From Vulcanimicrobiota bacterium (GTDB lineage: Bacteria > Vulcanimicrobiota > Vulcanimicrobiia > Vulcanimicrobiales > Vulcanimicrobiaceae), in NCBI GenBank assembly GCA_963820825.1, contig CAWGBN010000007.1, forward strand, positions 1 through 64,000: DNA of 64,000 nucleotides, in the 5' to 3' direction. The first letter of the stretch is position 1, and each line of letters opens with the position of its first letter. Position numbers and translations under genes: made by a program. The notes below the pieces were generated by a model. That model saw only the letters and a program-made list of their open reading frames with translations, was not told the DNA's origin and ran no database searches. This document shows positions 11,883 to 14,318 of this stretch, piece by piece.

Positions 11883-12872
11883 TTACGTCGGAGTCGCCAG
11901 GAACCCGTGGGTCTTTCCGAAGCGATCGACGTAATAGCCGACCACGTCGTAGTGGATGTTGATGCTCGTCACGCTCGTCGTGCCGACACCATTGGGATCG
12001 TCAATCGACTGCCACGTTGTATGATTGGGGCGCAGCGGCTCCAATAATAAAAAGCCGTGCGTCTTCCCCGACTTGTCGACGTAGGTGCCGACGATCCGGT
12101 CGAGGATCGTGATCCCGAGGAACTCCGTACTCGTGGCGTGCGGGAATGAATAGAACGTGAACGCGCCGTCGTGGAGCAGAAAGCCCACGATGGTGCCGTT
12201 CGATCGCCGAACGTATCCGGCGATATCGCCCTTCCCGTTGATCCCGGTCGCCACGGTGTCCACGGCGTTCGGCGGCACGATGTCTTTGTACGCGCCGGTC
12301 GTAATCTTCACTTGGAAGGCGTGCTGATGGCGCAGCGCCGTCGAGGTGTACAAGCCCACCGCGATATTCGAGTCGTTGATCCCGAAGAGTTCGGTCGTCG
12401 TGCCGTCGCCCTTCGATTTCGGGTCCTGATAATCCGAAAAAATATTCTGCGTCTCGGTGAAACCGAATACTCCGCCTTTGAGATCGCGGTAGAATCCGGT
12501 CAGCGTCTTGGCGCTGTTCAGTCCCGTCGCTTGCGTGTCGACCGAGAGTGGAAAGATGATCGGCTTATAGTTGATCTGATGGAAGGGTGGGAAGACGACG
12601 TAGCCGCGGTTCGGATGCAGCAAACTGCCCTTGCCGTAGTAACCCACGATGTGCTGCAGGTTGTTGATGCCGAGCAGCTCGTTAAAGCGCGGGTCGAGCT
12701 TGTCGTCGAGCGTGCGAAACTTAAACGCGATCGCCGTCTGCCGCGATGCGCTCGGCGATTCGAGCGCAGCAGCCGGCGGTACCATCTGATGCAATCCGGC
12801 GCACGCGCCGAGACTAGAAACTAGCCCCAGCGCGAACGCCGGAAGTACATACCCCAGCCTCGCTACTGCCAT
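11883..12872 (-). CDS. HAF-like extracellular repeat lipoprotein
   Basis: Lipobox LGAC; repeats GIN....IVG.Y.D..G..HGF. Confidence 0.8.
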   Translation of the reverse strand: MAVARLGYVLPAFALGLVSSLGACAGLHQMVPPAAALESPSASRQTAIAFKFRTLDDKLDPRFNELLGINNLQHIVGYYGKGSLLHPNRGYVVFPPFHQINYKPIIFPLSVDTQATGLNSAKTLTGFYRDLKGGVFGFTETQNIFSDYQDPKSKGDGTTTELFGINDSNIAVGLYTSTALRHQHAFQVKITTGAYKDIVPPNAVDTVATGINGKGDIAGYVRRSNGTIVGFLLHDGAFTFYSFPHATSTEFLGITILDRIVGTYVDKSGKTHGFLLLEPLRPNHTTWQSIDDPNGVGTTSVTSINIHYDVVGYYVDRFGKTHGFLATPT

Positions 12873-12925: not shown

Positions 12926-13693
12926 TTAGGCCGCCTTTCGAAGCCGCGCGGCCTCCAATCCGTTCCAGAAGCTGCCGACGGCGTCGAGGATCGCCGCTCC
13001 GGCGCGCAGGAATCGCTCGGCTGAAAAGCCTGGCTTTGCAAACGCTTCGCGCAGCTCTTCGTCGGTATGCGCCGCGTGATTCTCCTCCAGCGCGTCGTGC
13101 CAGGTCCAGAACCCCAGCGGAAGCTCCGGCAGCCGCTCCGCCTTGACGACGCGCAGCCCGGCGATGAGTTCCTTCCAGAATCCGGCCGCCGCCCAGTGCT
13201 CGATCGCGTACGACGCGCCCGCGGCCGTCGATTCGTCCGCAGCGCTATACCACTCCATCAACGCGTCGCAGAACGCCAGCGTCGACGCACGCCCGTGGCA
13301 GCGCTTCCCGATCTCTTCCCACGTCAGGCCCAGCGCATCGGCGAAGTTCGCCAGCCACTCGAAGTGCCCGGCCGTAAAGCGGAAGGTTCCGCCCTCAATC
13401 GTTCCCGACGGGGTGAAGACGACGCCGAGCTCGTTCATCAGAATCTCCTTCCCCGCGCGGTAGCTCTGCAGATCCGGAGCGTTGATGCACTTGCGAAGCT
13501 GTGCTTCGATGAAGAGATGGCTGAAGACCGAGAACTGCACCGTAAAGTCGCGCAGTTGCACCATGCTCGCCTCTCCGCGAGAGAACCAGCTCGTATAGGC
13601 GTTGTGCCGAACGATCGGGTGTTCGTTGATGCTCCGCGCGACCGCTTCCTCAAACTCGGCGAGGTCGTCGGCTGGCTCGAGAACCGTAGTCAT
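12926..13693 (-). CDS. Heme-oxygenase-like diiron oxidase (HDO; TenA/PqqC/CADD superfamily)
   Basis: N-terminal HP, NE...H(FEWL), AIEH, H..LE..H and C-terminal FW pattern of HO-like diiron proteins; RBS AAGGAG at 13700-13705. Confidence 0.8.
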   Translation of the reverse strand: MTTVLEPADDLAEFEEAVARSINEHPIVRHNAYTSWFSRGEASMVQLRDFTVQFSVFSHLFIEAQLRKCINAPDLQSYRAGKEILMNELGVVFTPSGTIEGGTFRFTAGHFEWLANFADALGLTWEEIGKRCHGRASTLAFCDALMEWYSAADESTAAGASYAIEHWAAAGFWKELIAGLRVVKAERLPELPLGFWTWHDALEENHAAHTDEELREAFAKPGFSAERFLRAGAAILDAVGSFWNGLEAARLRKAA

Positions 13694-13706
13694 AGCACAC
13701 TCCTTG

Positions 13707-13744
13707 AAAATAAAAAAGCCGCCTCGCATCGGCGAGGCGGCTTT
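13707..13744 (-). terminator. Intrinsic terminator (attenuator) in the 5' leader of the HDO gene
   Basis: AAAGCCGCCTCGC-CGAT-GCGAGGCGGCTTT followed by TTTATTTT, immediately before the RBS. Confidence 0.9.
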
Positions 13745-13766
13745 GCACTTTTTACGAACTCGTTCG

Positions 13767-13844
13767 TTACTGCAATGACCCACCTGGCCGACTTCGGTCG
13801 AAGTAGCCGTAATAATAGTAAGCCACAGCCTTAAGAACGAGCAT
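13767..13844 (-). CDS. Tyr-rich leader peptide MLVLKAVAYYYYGYFDRSRPGGSLQ (25 aa)
   Basis: ATG 13844, codons TAC TAT TAT TAC GGC TAC TTC, stop TAA 13767; lies between promoter and terminator. Confidence 0.85.
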   Translation of the reverse strand: MLVLKAVAYYYYGYFDRSRPGGSLQ

Positions 13845-13854
13845 ATTGCAGAGC

Positions 13855-13883
13855 ACTATAGCACATGCCATTCGCATGCGCAA
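13855..13883 (-). promoter_or_regulatory. Sigma70-type promoter of the leader peptide/HDO unit
   Basis: TTGCGC-17 nt-TATAGT with TGn extended -10; leader ATG 10 nt downstream. Confidence 0.8.
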
Positions 13884-13889
13884 GAGCGG

Positions 13890-14318
13890 CTACGGCGCAA
13901 CCAGTCCCGTGACCACCACCAATGCGCCCAGGATTGCGATTGCATCCTCGAGCAGGGCCGCCGGAACTCGGCCGATCGTCGCGATGGCGCGCGTGCGGAC
14001 CATGAGACCGCCATAGGCACCGGCGAGGGCTCCGGCGACGCCGAGCAGCGCGCCCACGACCGCCGAGGAGCCGCCCGCAGCCGTGACCGCCCAGCCGCAG
14101 AACGCGCCGCTGAGGATCCGGGCGACGAGCCCGGCCACGCCCGTCCGCGGCGGCGCCTTGGGATGGAGGTCGCCGGCAAACTCTACGAGCGCGAGCGCCG
14201 CGATGAGATAGGCGACCGGCGATCGATGGCGCATAAGCCAGAGCACCGCCGGCGCGGTGAACGTGCGCAGACCGGCGACGATGCCGATTAGCAACGCGGC
14301 GGCATATGAATCGTACAA
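13890..14318 (-). CDS. Small integral membrane protein (DUF4126-like)
   Basis: GLRTFTAP, E..GD..PK.P.R, ED motifs in a hydrophobic 142-aa ORF. Confidence 0.75.
   Translation of the reverse strand: MYDSYAAALLIGIVAGLRTFTAPAVLWLMRHRSPVAYLIAALALVEFAGDLHPKAPPRTGVAGLVARILSGAFCGWAVTAAGGSSAVVGALLGVAGALAGAYGGLMVRTRAIATIGRVPAALLEDAIAILGALVVVTGLVAP

Follow-up and report, generated by a model that had tools for sequence, protein, structure and literature searches.

The subject of this work is a regulatory unit, and the enzyme gene behind it, on the minus strand of a contig of a Vulcanimicrobiota bacterium (GenBank assembly GCA_963820825.1, contig CAWGBN010000007.1), of which positions 1 to 64,000, hereafter the window, make up the stretch of 64,000 nucleotides (nt) that was analysed. 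The unit is composed of a promoter, a 25-codon open reading frame (ORF) with five Tyr codons in six codons, and an intrinsic terminator, and it precedes the gene of a 255-residue protein with a predicted heme-oxygenase-like diiron (HDO) fold. The overall best reading, to which we give a probability of roughly 60%, is that of an attenuator responding to Tyr starvation which controls a pterin-independent Phe-to-Tyr hydroxylase. Comparison of orthologous loci makes it very probable that the unit is a ribosome-mediated transcription attenuator that reads Tyr codons. Three lines together suggest that the enzyme probably supplies Tyr: the predicted polarity of the switch, which a shortage of Tyr-tRNA would turn on, the apparent substitution of the enzyme for aroH-tyrA in two phyla, and an analogous leader in front of aroH-tyrA itself.

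The original prediction, made from the letters of the window, had read there a near-consensus promoter, a 25-amino-acid (aa) ORF with five Tyr codons in six that begins 10 nt past the -10 element, a 13-bp GC hairpin with a U tract, a ribosome-binding site, and an HDO-fold gene. All of the downstream elements were found again (Table 1), the terminator stem comprising 13 pairs, nine of them G-C, followed by its T tract. The promoter stood in part; its extended -10 element is present, while the -35 hexamer TTGCGC matches TTGACA at three of six positions, for which reason a consensus promoter scan of the locus listed no site. The leader ORF has no Shine-Dalgarno sequence and its ATG lies nearly at the expected start of transcription; being so near to the -10 element, this ATG would leave the mRNA with little or no untranslated 5' sequence. 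The 2.98-Mb genome, with 5.96 million codon positions in six frames, contains only three instances of four consecutive Tyr codons (YYYY), one of them in the leader ORF and the other two, overlapping, within a single 420-aa ORF; the Tyr run of the leader is not a product of chance. The leader RNA folds with a z-score of -5.0, and none of 200 shuffled sequences folded equally well.

Table 1. Elements of the leader unit, the HDO gene and the two adjoining genes, given as positions within the window.
Feature	Position	Strand	Remarks
Promoter	13855..13883	minus	-35 TTGCGC 13883-13878, 17-nt spacer, extended -10 TGC-TATAGT 13863-13855; read from sequence
Leader ORF	13767..13844	minus	ATG at 13844, 25 codons MLVLKAVAYYYYGYFDRSRPGGSLQ, stop TAA 13769-13767
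Tyr codons of leader ORF	13820-13809, 13805-13803	minus	codons 9-12 and 14
Hairpin 1:2	13786..13808	minus	GGCUACUUC 13808-13800, loop GACC, GAAGUCGGCC 13795-13786; directly 3' of the Tyr run
Region 2, 5' strand of antiterminator	13770..13790	minus	CGGCCAGGUGGGUCAUUGCAG; from constrained minimum-free-energy folds
Small hairpin ACGAA-CGAG-UUCGU	13754..13767	minus	just 3' of the leader stop, inside the UUGC/GCAA helix; RNAalifold
Intrinsic terminator	13707..13747	minus	stem-loop 13744-13715 and U tract
Region 3 of antiterminator	13747-13730	minus	terminator 5' arm with flanking UGCAA
Shine-Dalgarno sequence AAGGAG of HDO gene	13705-13700	minus	6 nt ahead of the HDO ATG; kept in the congener alignment
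HDO-fold enzyme gene	12926..13693	minus	255 aa; fold, family, phyletic pattern and context in the text
Upstream neighbour	13890-14318	minus	DUF4126-like membrane protein, weak Pfam match
Downstream neighbour	11883-12872	minus	329-aa ORF, lipoprotein-signal-like N-terminus, weak HAF-repeat match

Of 36 congeners, 19 have an orthologue of the enzyme at 76-89% identity; no orthologue turned up in the 24 genomes of neighbouring families. By the names that close homologues bear, the source belongs to Eremiobacterota/Vulcanimicrobiota, in the vicinity of Candidatus Cybelea. The short ORF stood in all 21 upstream regions that could be extracted from these 19 congeners and the window (locus L017 ends with its contig and was unusable). 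In the congeners the order of the elements is a TATAGT-like -10, the sequence CAAYATG, an ORF of 24-27 codons, TAA, a near-invariant terminator and a ribosome-binding site. The gene 5' of the leader varies among the loci examined, which indicates that leader and enzyme travel jointly as a unit. A wider, one-genome-per-species scan retained 80 of 534 loci; two of the 80 were too short upstream to be judged, and scoring covered the 67 loci from outside the Actinomycetota that had 200 nt or more of upstream sequence. A Tyr-rich short ORF and a terminator precede 66 of these 67 orthologues from Eremiobacterota and Melainabacteria. Scripted detection found both elements at 63 of the loci, and three more (L078, L080 and L082), whose stems are poorer in G+C than the limit of the script, were added; L076 was the sole locus of the 67 without them. 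Among the loci labelled Melainabacteria, Obscuribacterales or Cyanobacteria, the enzymes of which are 63-70% identical to that of the window, ORF and terminator were found in 12 of 13. The peptides of Melainabacteria and Obscuribacterales, such as MTARNAYSYYYYTYSLGVG, MSRSVNSYYYYYYRGPAGGA, MKHQNAYRYQYYYTSREVG and MIYNNSQPYYYYSYPQGVG, share only the Tyr codons with the window peptide, and in a deeper branch of Eremiobacterota (L083-L090) the peptide is MFAPAYLIGSYQYRS..., with three spaced Tyr. No leader, and so no leader peptide, was found at any of the 11 orthologous loci from Acidimicrobiia (Actinomycetota). The claim of ribosome-mediated attenuation was to be judged, according to the original prediction, on whether Tyr-rich ORFs and terminators recur upstream of homologues; this proved strongly positive at the 66 loci, and the claim gains further from a conserved alternative pairing with the terminator 5' arm. 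One congener (G011; loci L004, L021 and L023-L025) carries three leader-HDO copies, and two of its enzyme genes are seemingly broken into two overlapping frames.

Within the leader ORF only the Tyr codons behave as coding sequence, and its 3' part is constrained as RNA. All 66 distinct leader ORFs are open; they encode Tyr by TAT 173 times and by TAC 133 times, in alternation, and the indels in the Tyr run are multiples of three, such that the length of the run shifts by whole codons. The densest window of seven codons holds 2, 3, 4, 5 or 6 Tyr in 8, 16, 10, 18 and 14 of the 66 leaders, respectively. The conserved segment NYCGGC of region 2, on the other side, falls in frames 1, 2 and 0 in 30, 16 and 16 leaders, and the stop codon lies inside the motif in eight. 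A TGnTAnnnT element and a TTGC -35 recur 5' of the orthologues, and the distance from the -10 to the ATG is 6-12 nt, mostly 9-10, in Eremiobacterota and Melainabacteria alike. This spacing, together with the open frame, the TAT/TAC wobble and the whole-codon indels, argues for leaderless translation of the leader ORF.

These data bear on two explanations that would do without attenuation. In the first, the short ORF would be the precursor of a ribosomally synthesized and post-translationally modified peptide (RiPP), or a sacrificial Tyr donor, modified by the HDO enzyme, and the terminator would only set the ratio of peptide to enzyme. The Tyr run is indeed the one conserved feature of the peptide, and in RiPP clusters the precursor gene is often followed by a terminator. 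The involvement of HDOs in modifying ribosomal peptides is also mentioned in PMC13108848. Apart from Tyr, however, the peptide has no conserved leader or core, the number of Tyr ranges from 2 to 6 per seven-codon window, conservation in the 3' half of the ORF is at the level of RNA and spans three reading frames, and all 11 Acidimicrobiia orthologues do without the peptide. No protease or exporter was present among the neighbouring genes scanned against Pfam, the upstream gene varying among the loci examined, and both the antiterminator pairing and the complementarity with TyrA described below would have to be coincidences. The peptide as substrate, an option that had been raised from the window, is thus disfavoured, and we consider it extremely unlikely. 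The PqqA/PqqC pair was likewise set aside as a model, as a Glu-x3-Tyr core is missing from the peptide and pqq genes from its surroundings.

In the second of these explanations the promoter-terminator unit would be mainly a stand-alone small RNA, with the HDO made only by constitutive readthrough. The transcript of about 135 nt would be compact and strongly folded, with a promoter and a terminator of its own, and Rfam gave weak, sub-threshold matches to small RNA families. This is scarcely credible given that the unit was seen only 5' of the HDO gene, with an nhmmer search using the leader profile returning one full leader copy in the assembly of the window; that the gap between terminator and gene, 17-35 nt in most loci, leaves no room for a second promoter; and that both the Tyr codons and the openness of the frame have been kept among the loci. 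The UUCGUAAAAAUGCA...GCC portion of the leader has a short partial match (nhmmer E = 4e-4) elsewhere in the same genome, over 35 nt of seemingly coding-like sequence at C8:631256-631290.

The attenuator reading draws on the RNA structures of the leader. RNAalifold applied to 20 congener leaders gave four elements, namely a hairpin that begins one codon past the Tyr run, a helix of UUGC with GCAA, a lesser hairpin within this helix and just beyond the stop codon, and the terminator. The state with a stalled ribosome was folded with the RNA masked to 12 nt past the Tyr codon in the A site and with the 3' terminator arm omitted as unmade. The minimum-free-energy (MFE) structure of this state is a long interrupted helix in which CGGCnAGGU..GC..UUGC, from the 3' arm of hairpin 1 onward, pairs with the terminator 5' arm GCAA.GC.GCCU.GCCG. 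This helix was present in each of the 18 congener leaders, out of 20, whose folds were inspected, and the full set of 66 distinct leaders bore it out: upstream RNA pairs with 6 nt or more of the terminator 5' arm in every one of them, and with at least 70% of the arm in 51. The energies of the stalled folds had a median z of -2.6, and z was below -2 in 48 of the 66, relative to 200 dinucleotide shuffles of the upstream part.

An alignment of 58 leaders (A4) allowed both states to be compared with structures in which the partners had been slid. The antiterminator is paired at 71.9% as against at most 53.8% with slid partners, with a covariation score of 0.122 as against at most 0.092, and the terminator state is paired at 76.6% as against at most 43.9%. 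Among individual helices of the 58 leaders, hairpin 1:2 (helix 6) is paired at 84.8% with compensatory changes at six of nine pairs, the terminator (helix 7) at 95.6% with compensatory changes at eight of 13 pairs, and the small hairpin after the stop codon (helix 2) shows compensatory changes at all five of its pairs. A compensatory change is found inside the antiterminator as well, where L078 has GUCGG/CCGAC and both L080 and L082 have GUCAGA/UCUGAC.

The mechanism that we propose is as follows. Transcription from the extended -10 promoter would begin on the AUG of the 25-codon leader ORF or no more than about 3 nt away from it. With charged tRNA-Tyr plentiful, the ribosome would reach the UAA and cover region 2, the 13-bp terminator would form, and transcription would end before the enzyme gene. 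If the leader were not translated at all, hairpin 1:2 would sequester region 2 and the terminator would form again; this hairpin would thus be an anti-antiterminator, and possibly a pause hairpin. With tRNA-Tyr scarce, the ribosome would stall at the four to six Tyr codons and cover region 1, leaving region 2 free to pair with the 5' arm of the terminator, and RNA polymerase would enter the enzyme gene. Two other kinds of sensor were considered and rejected: a sensor of queuosine or tRNA modification, as among the NAY codons only those for Tyr are enriched, and a T-box, as there is neither a specifier nor a T-box architecture. Rfam searches with the leader returned sub-threshold matches only and no family membership, the scores against the gathering thresholds being 31.7/50 bits for Leu_leader, 22.3/55 for Phe_leader and 13.6/55 for Thr_leader. 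A search of sequencing runs listed no RNA run with the locus, and the share of sampled words recovered from any one run was 9% at most.

The enzyme belongs to a small family, with 385 representative clusters at E <= 1e-3 among 1.84 billion. In Pfam the window protein matched only PF14518, at 23.2 bits and so below the cut-off of 28.9, the same domain being precomputed on some close relatives; the Biopterin_H domain (PF00351) was not found in it. NCBIfam gave only a weak match to the CADD family (TIGR04305, 23.3 bits against a cut-off of 200). A PDB sequence search with the single protein returned nothing, one with the family profile returned marginal HDO matches only (E of about 4e-4), and the matches in the ESM Atlas were to generic HDO, TenA and PqqC clusters. 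An AlphaFold2 model built on a 33-sequence alignment reached a predicted local distance difference test (pLDDT) value of 93.9 and a predicted template modelling score (pTM) of 0.90. With this model Foldseek found 51 PDB matches at E <= 1e-3 and, among the matches listed, all were HDO, TenA or PqqC proteins; the best was CADD (template modelling scores 0.72/0.85, 20% identity), followed by PqqC, HrmI, UndA, PolF, BesC and FlcD. The modelled structure has the seven-helix heme-oxygenase-like fold. Five residues do not vary in the family alignment (A3), namely E88, H110, H199, E203 and H206, and a sixth, at position 165, is either E or D; three of them form the motif H199-x3-E203-x2-H206 on the last presumed ligand helix. 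These residues, which we take to be equivalent to the metal ligands of CADD, are as would be expected for a metal site of three His and three carboxylates.

The likeness to CADD raises the question of a CADD-like p-aminobenzoate synthase which would cleave a Tyr of itself or of the leader peptide. CADD is the best structural match, weak matches were obtained to TIGR04305 and to a 4-aminobenzoate synthase chain, and no true PabB was seen, a pabB model giving at most one chorismate-binding match per genome and that below the cut-off. A score of 23 bits is nevertheless far from the 200 of TIGR04305, and the PabB-like pattern is the same with or without HDO and hence non-discriminating, the HDO gene tracking the loss of aroH-tyrA instead. 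The position that aligns near the sacrificial Tyr of CADD is Y, F or H in the family, in a register ambiguous by one residue, and the homogentisate context of the Acidimicrobiia orthologues does not fit. A p-aminobenzoate synthase is therefore highly improbable.

The loss of aroH-tyrA was followed in a genus sample of 37 genomes, the same draw throughout, which neighbouring families extended to a set of 61. HDO was present in 20 of the 37 genomes and TyrA (PF02153) also in 20, and an AroH-type chorismate mutase (PF07736) was found in exactly the same 20 genomes as TyrA, its gene adjoining tyrA; the CM_2 family (PF01817) was found in none of the 37, and PhhA (PF00351) in none of the 61. The tallies outside the family count G059, a genome flagged as unpublished, on which none of the claims rests. 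HDO occurred alone in 13 genomes, TyrA alone in 13, both in seven and neither in four (G001, G019, G020 and G027), such that 13 of the 17 genomes without the aroH-tyrA operon carry HDO. A TrpE-like match was obtained in 30 of 36 congeners, and the four genomes with neither gene are all without it, as is the genome of the window itself, which is 85% complete. The 30 genomes with a TrpE-like match, a split chosen after seeing the data, all have HDO or aroH-tyrA, 12 of them HDO only. The 13 HDO-only congeners had no match to either chorismate mutase family (CM_1/AroH-type or CM_2), and no known route to prephenate was found in them, which argues against prephenate or arogenate as the substrate. 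The original prediction had tied the enzyme to Tyr, whether by producing or by consuming it, and had pointed to an absence of tyrA, phhA or pab genes as informative. On the latter point, the HDO gene tracks the loss of aroH-tyrA and PhhA was found nowhere in the set of 61, while the pabB pattern does not discriminate; on the former, the producing branch is favoured, by the complementarity with aroH-tyrA in two phyla, by the comparable leader that aroH-tyrA has and by the predicted polarity of the switch.

Some further observations concern the same pathway. In G024, which has both HDO and the operon, aroH is split in two frames and tyrA contains one TGA and one TAA (C1:583315-584116), in an apparent decay of the pathway that HDO would replace. 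Across G000-G036 and G042-G060, a search for prephenate dehydratase (PF00800) gave no match in the 37 genomes of the genus or the 19 of a sister family, but one in 5 of 5 genomes of another family; an AroQ-type chorismate mutase was found in almost none.

The aroH-tyrA operon of the congeners has a leader of its own. In 14 of 17 upstream regions (L113-L129) a promoter is followed by a short ORF that starts about 8 nt after a CATAGT-like -10 and by a terminator abutting aroH; the same arrangement stands before L107 (G008) and not before L106. Eight of these leader peptides have three to five Tyr, e.g., MWTLGSYGYAFYYCRLRGR, MWTLNSYVYSSYYYHLRGR and MSTSRSYWYSFYCLRRKRR, and others are richer in Trp (MWTWMAHRSTYRF..., MWTWMA...). 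This looks like a second, unrelated family of aromatic or Tyr attenuators.

A replicate of the phyletic pattern was obtained in 81 genomes of Vampirovibrionia. HDO orthologues (62-69% identity) were present in seven, and TyrA over the cut-off was missing in six of these seven, the seventh having only a partial match of 38.6 bits. TyrA was found in 69 of the 74 non-carriers and missing in five (Fisher p of about 1e-5 for carriers against the others, among relatives that are not independent). One of the carriers without TyrA, L080, is a complete chromosome, and prephenate dehydratase was present in four of the five carriers tested. Ten further genomes of 1.9-2.8 Mb (G083, G089, G095, G103, G107, G113, G118, G124, G129 and G134) have distant HDO homologues with 35-49% identity; these, having TyrA alongside in nine of ten, are probably of a different function.

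Complementarity with TyrA in two phyla would also be expected if the same attenuator controlled an O2-dependent analogue of TyrA, that is, an enzyme converting prephenate to 4-hydroxyphenylpyruvate, or arogenate to Tyr, by oxidative decarboxylation. UndA and BesC catalyse oxidative decarboxylation or C-C cleavage, according to the available text of PMC13108848, and the Melainabacteria, retaining prephenate dehydratase, presumably make prephenate. The 13 HDO-only congeners without either chorismate mutase family speak against such an enzyme, and the Acidimicrobiia, to which we now turn, contribute to both sides.

The 11 orthologous loci of Acidimicrobiia encode enzymes with 54-62% identity to that of the window (62% for a partial match, L105). 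In all 11 the next gene downstream, in the same orientation, is that of HPPD, and upstream an Lrp/AsnC regulator is read divergently. Coordinates were read for five loci; HDO and HPPD are some 15 nt apart in four of them, and in L098 the ORFs overlap. HgmA (homogentisate 1,2-dioxygenase) was found near HDO in seven loci and as a short match at the edge of L105; fumarylacetoacetate hydrolase was found in six, and a maleylpyruvate-isomerase-like gene in two. In three loci (L097, L098 and L101) the place of hmgA and fumarylacetoacetate hydrolase next to the Lrp regulator is taken by a class II DAHP synthase, an arrangement that may serve biosynthesis and not catabolism. None of the 69 loci of Eremiobacterota and Melainabacteria had these neighbours within 3 kb. 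The DAHP synthase of L098 has an N-terminal extension of about 170 aa. While the DAHP synthase beside Lrp, HDO and HPPD would suit a TyrA analogue, TyrA over the cut-off was present in four of five HDO-bearing Acidimicrobiia tested, and the breakdown of prephenate within a catabolic homogentisate cluster makes little sense. We regard the TyrA analogue as unlikely.

PhhA was found in none of the same five HDO-bearing genomes. In a sample of 151 Acidimicrobiia, PhhA was present in 11, HDO in four, and both in none, and six of the 11 PhhA loci are flanked within 1.5 kb by a gene for HPPD, HgmA, fumarylacetoacetate hydrolase or an Lrp-type regulator. HDO thus appears to sit where other Acidimicrobiia carry the pterin-dependent PhhA, at the head of the homogentisate cluster.

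The same clusters invite the opposite explanation, in which the enzyme consumes Tyr, for instance by oxidative deamination to 4-hydroxyphenylpyruvate, and the leader induces it at Tyr excess through a tnaC-like arrest. In favour of this are the operon with HPPD in a homogentisate cluster at all 11 Acidimicrobiia loci, the presence of HPPD in 35 of 36 congeners, and, as stated in the available text of PMC13108848, the oxidation of amino groups by several HDOs. The leader peptide, however, is unconserved beyond its Tyr codons. Arrest peptides such as TnaC depend on specific residues. The architecture of 1:2, 2:3 and 3:4 pairings with an intrinsic terminator also stands against such an arrest, as does the comparable Tyr-rich leader in front of the biosynthetic aroH-tyrA, and the complementarity with TyrA would be left unexplained. 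Tyr catabolism is, in our view, very unlikely.

Under the hydroxylase reading, the enzyme would relieve a shortage of Tyr as an O2-dependent, pterin-independent, heme-oxygenase-like dimetal 4-hydroxylase of Phe or phenylpyruvate; Eremiobacterota and Melainabacteria would use it in lieu of the aroH-tyrA route, and in Acidimicrobiia it would fill the position of PhhA in the homogentisate pathway. The failure to find a chorismate mutase in HDO-only Eremiobacterota, the retained prephenate dehydratase in Melainabacteria and the PhhA position in Acidimicrobiia leave 4-hydroxylation of Phe or phenylpyruvate as the one reaction that fits all three, and on these comparisons we place this choice of substrate at about even odds. 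More tentative is the full scenario, in which a pterin-independent Phe 4-hydroxylase displaced aroH-tyrA in many Eremiobacterota and Obscuribacterales under the control of a poly-Tyr leaderless attenuator, and took the place of PhhA in Acidimicrobiia.

Several points weigh against this reading. On the side of the leader, leaderless initiation has, to our knowledge, not been demonstrated in this phylum, and the lack of a Shine-Dalgarno sequence on the leader ORF must be counted here. Shuffled upstream RNA also pairs 4.5-8.2 of the 10-14 bases of the terminator arm, which makes the count of paired arm bases a weak measure, and the antiterminator model was taken from the window's own sequence, which favours the model, and its outer helix barely varies. 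In the full-length leader the terminator stays the MFE structure at equilibrium, from which it follows that the choice between the two states must be kinetic and made during transcription, as in classical systems. On the side of metabolism, seven congeners keep both HDO and aroH-tyrA, and prephenate dehydratase was found in none of the 37 genomes of the genus, such that uptake of Phe or an unrecognised route to it must be assumed. The Fisher tests of HDO against TyrA (p = 0.02 for 37 genomes, 6e-4 for 30) overstate the case, the relatives not being independent. HPPD is present in nearly all congeners regardless of HDO and is non-discriminating, with the consequence that an absent downstream pathway cannot be used to exclude a catabolic role. 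The zero overlap of HDO and PhhA in Acidimicrobiia weighs little, as chance alone would give an overlap of about 0.3 genomes. As to the enzyme, no reductase partner gene is linked to HDO, and hydroxylation of an arene is without precedent among the roughly dozen validated HDOs covered by the available text of PMC13108848.

The two genes adjoining the unit in the window (Table 1) are not linked to HDO in other genomes, although, judged by eye, L002, L003 and L020 have upstream a coding sequence similar to the DUF4126-like one. A scan of the whole assembly for a short ORF with an amino-acid run, a terminator and a gene found nothing comparable to the leader-HDO unit. One candidate, a Thr-rich-leader-like short ORF (MVKGTTMLITTTA, at G000:C6:273773) with a 12-bp terminator 27 nt before a 404-aa ORF, was judged unconvincing; the 404-aa ORF has, on inspection of its sequence, the look of a class V aminotransferase or a cysteine desulfurase.

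Should the reading hold, it would describe bacteria that make Tyr from Phe as animals do, by a non-orthologous replacement of both TyrA and PhhA and thus by a new route to Tyr. It would add a new type of reaction to the HDO superfamily, namely aromatic hydroxylation in primary metabolism, and the leader would be a leader-peptide attenuator specific for Tyr, of which our literature searches found no description. Tyrosine prototrophy would have to be reread in three poorly cultured lineages, in which genomes annotated as tyrA-negative and auxotrophic for Tyr may make it from Phe. The regulatory signal would name the metabolite and the phyletic pattern the replaced pathway, and with a single 255-aa gene this is an unusually testable case.

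Compared with known systems, the leader resembles those of E. coli trpL, pheL, hisL, leuL and thrL in its promoter, its cluster of codons for one amino acid, and its 1:2, 2:3 and 3:4 hairpins followed by the gene. It differs from these in having Tyr codons, no Shine-Dalgarno sequence, a start beside the -10 element, a regulated gene that is not a canonical biosynthetic one, and no Rfam family. We view it as a very probable case of the classical mechanism with a new amino-acid specificity and without a ribosome-binding site on the leader ORF. In mycobacteria leaderless poly-Cys short ORFs act as attenuators, by a mechanism that is not known to be a simple intrinsic-terminator switch; they are alike in being leaderless short ORFs with repeated codons for the amino acid whose supply is under control, but belong to another phylum and to another amino acid. 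In Corynebacterium glutamicum the aroR leader before aroF contains Phe-Tyr-Phe and attenuates on Phe limitation, Tyr having no effect (PMC11802643, as far as its available text goes); both are aromatic-codon leaders on aromatic-pathway genes, in the HDO case a proposed one, whereas the run in the HDO leader is of Tyr only. Attenuators before tyrA operons have been predicted and left uncharacterised, according to the accessible part of PMC1173090. Our literature searches, which miss most subscription journals, found neither a Tyr-specific leader peptide attenuator nor a pterin-independent phenylalanine hydroxylase, and no heme-oxygenase-like diiron enzyme in Tyr synthesis was found among the titles and abstract openings covered.

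For the enzyme, the validated HDOs described in the available text of PMC13108848 number about a dozen and carry out N-oxygenation, C-C cleavage, desaturation, rearrangement and C-N bond formation. CADD (Chlamydia CT610) and NePabS share with the window enzyme the motif H-x3-[DE]-x2-H on the last presumed ligand helix, and their chemistry, like that proposed for the window enzyme, is centred on the Tyr ring, but the window enzyme has some 20 extra residues separating the first Glu from the first His of its presumed ligands, and a phyletic pattern that follows tyrA and not pabB. PhhA would be alike in the proposed reaction, in a dual role as a source of Tyr and as the first step of Phe catabolism via homogentisate, and in its Acidimicrobiia neighbours HPPD, HgmA, fumarylacetoacetate hydrolase and Lrp; it was not found in any HDO-carrying genome searched. 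The two are unrelated in sequence and fold, PhhA using a mononuclear Fe with tetrahydropterin and the HDO enzyme presumably a dimetal centre. TyrA, finally, is an unrelated, NAD(P)-dependent protein that acts on prephenate or arogenate, and yet it is the cellular role of TyrA with AroH that the HDO enzyme appears to replace, both being preceded in this genus by a Tyr-rich or aromatic leader.

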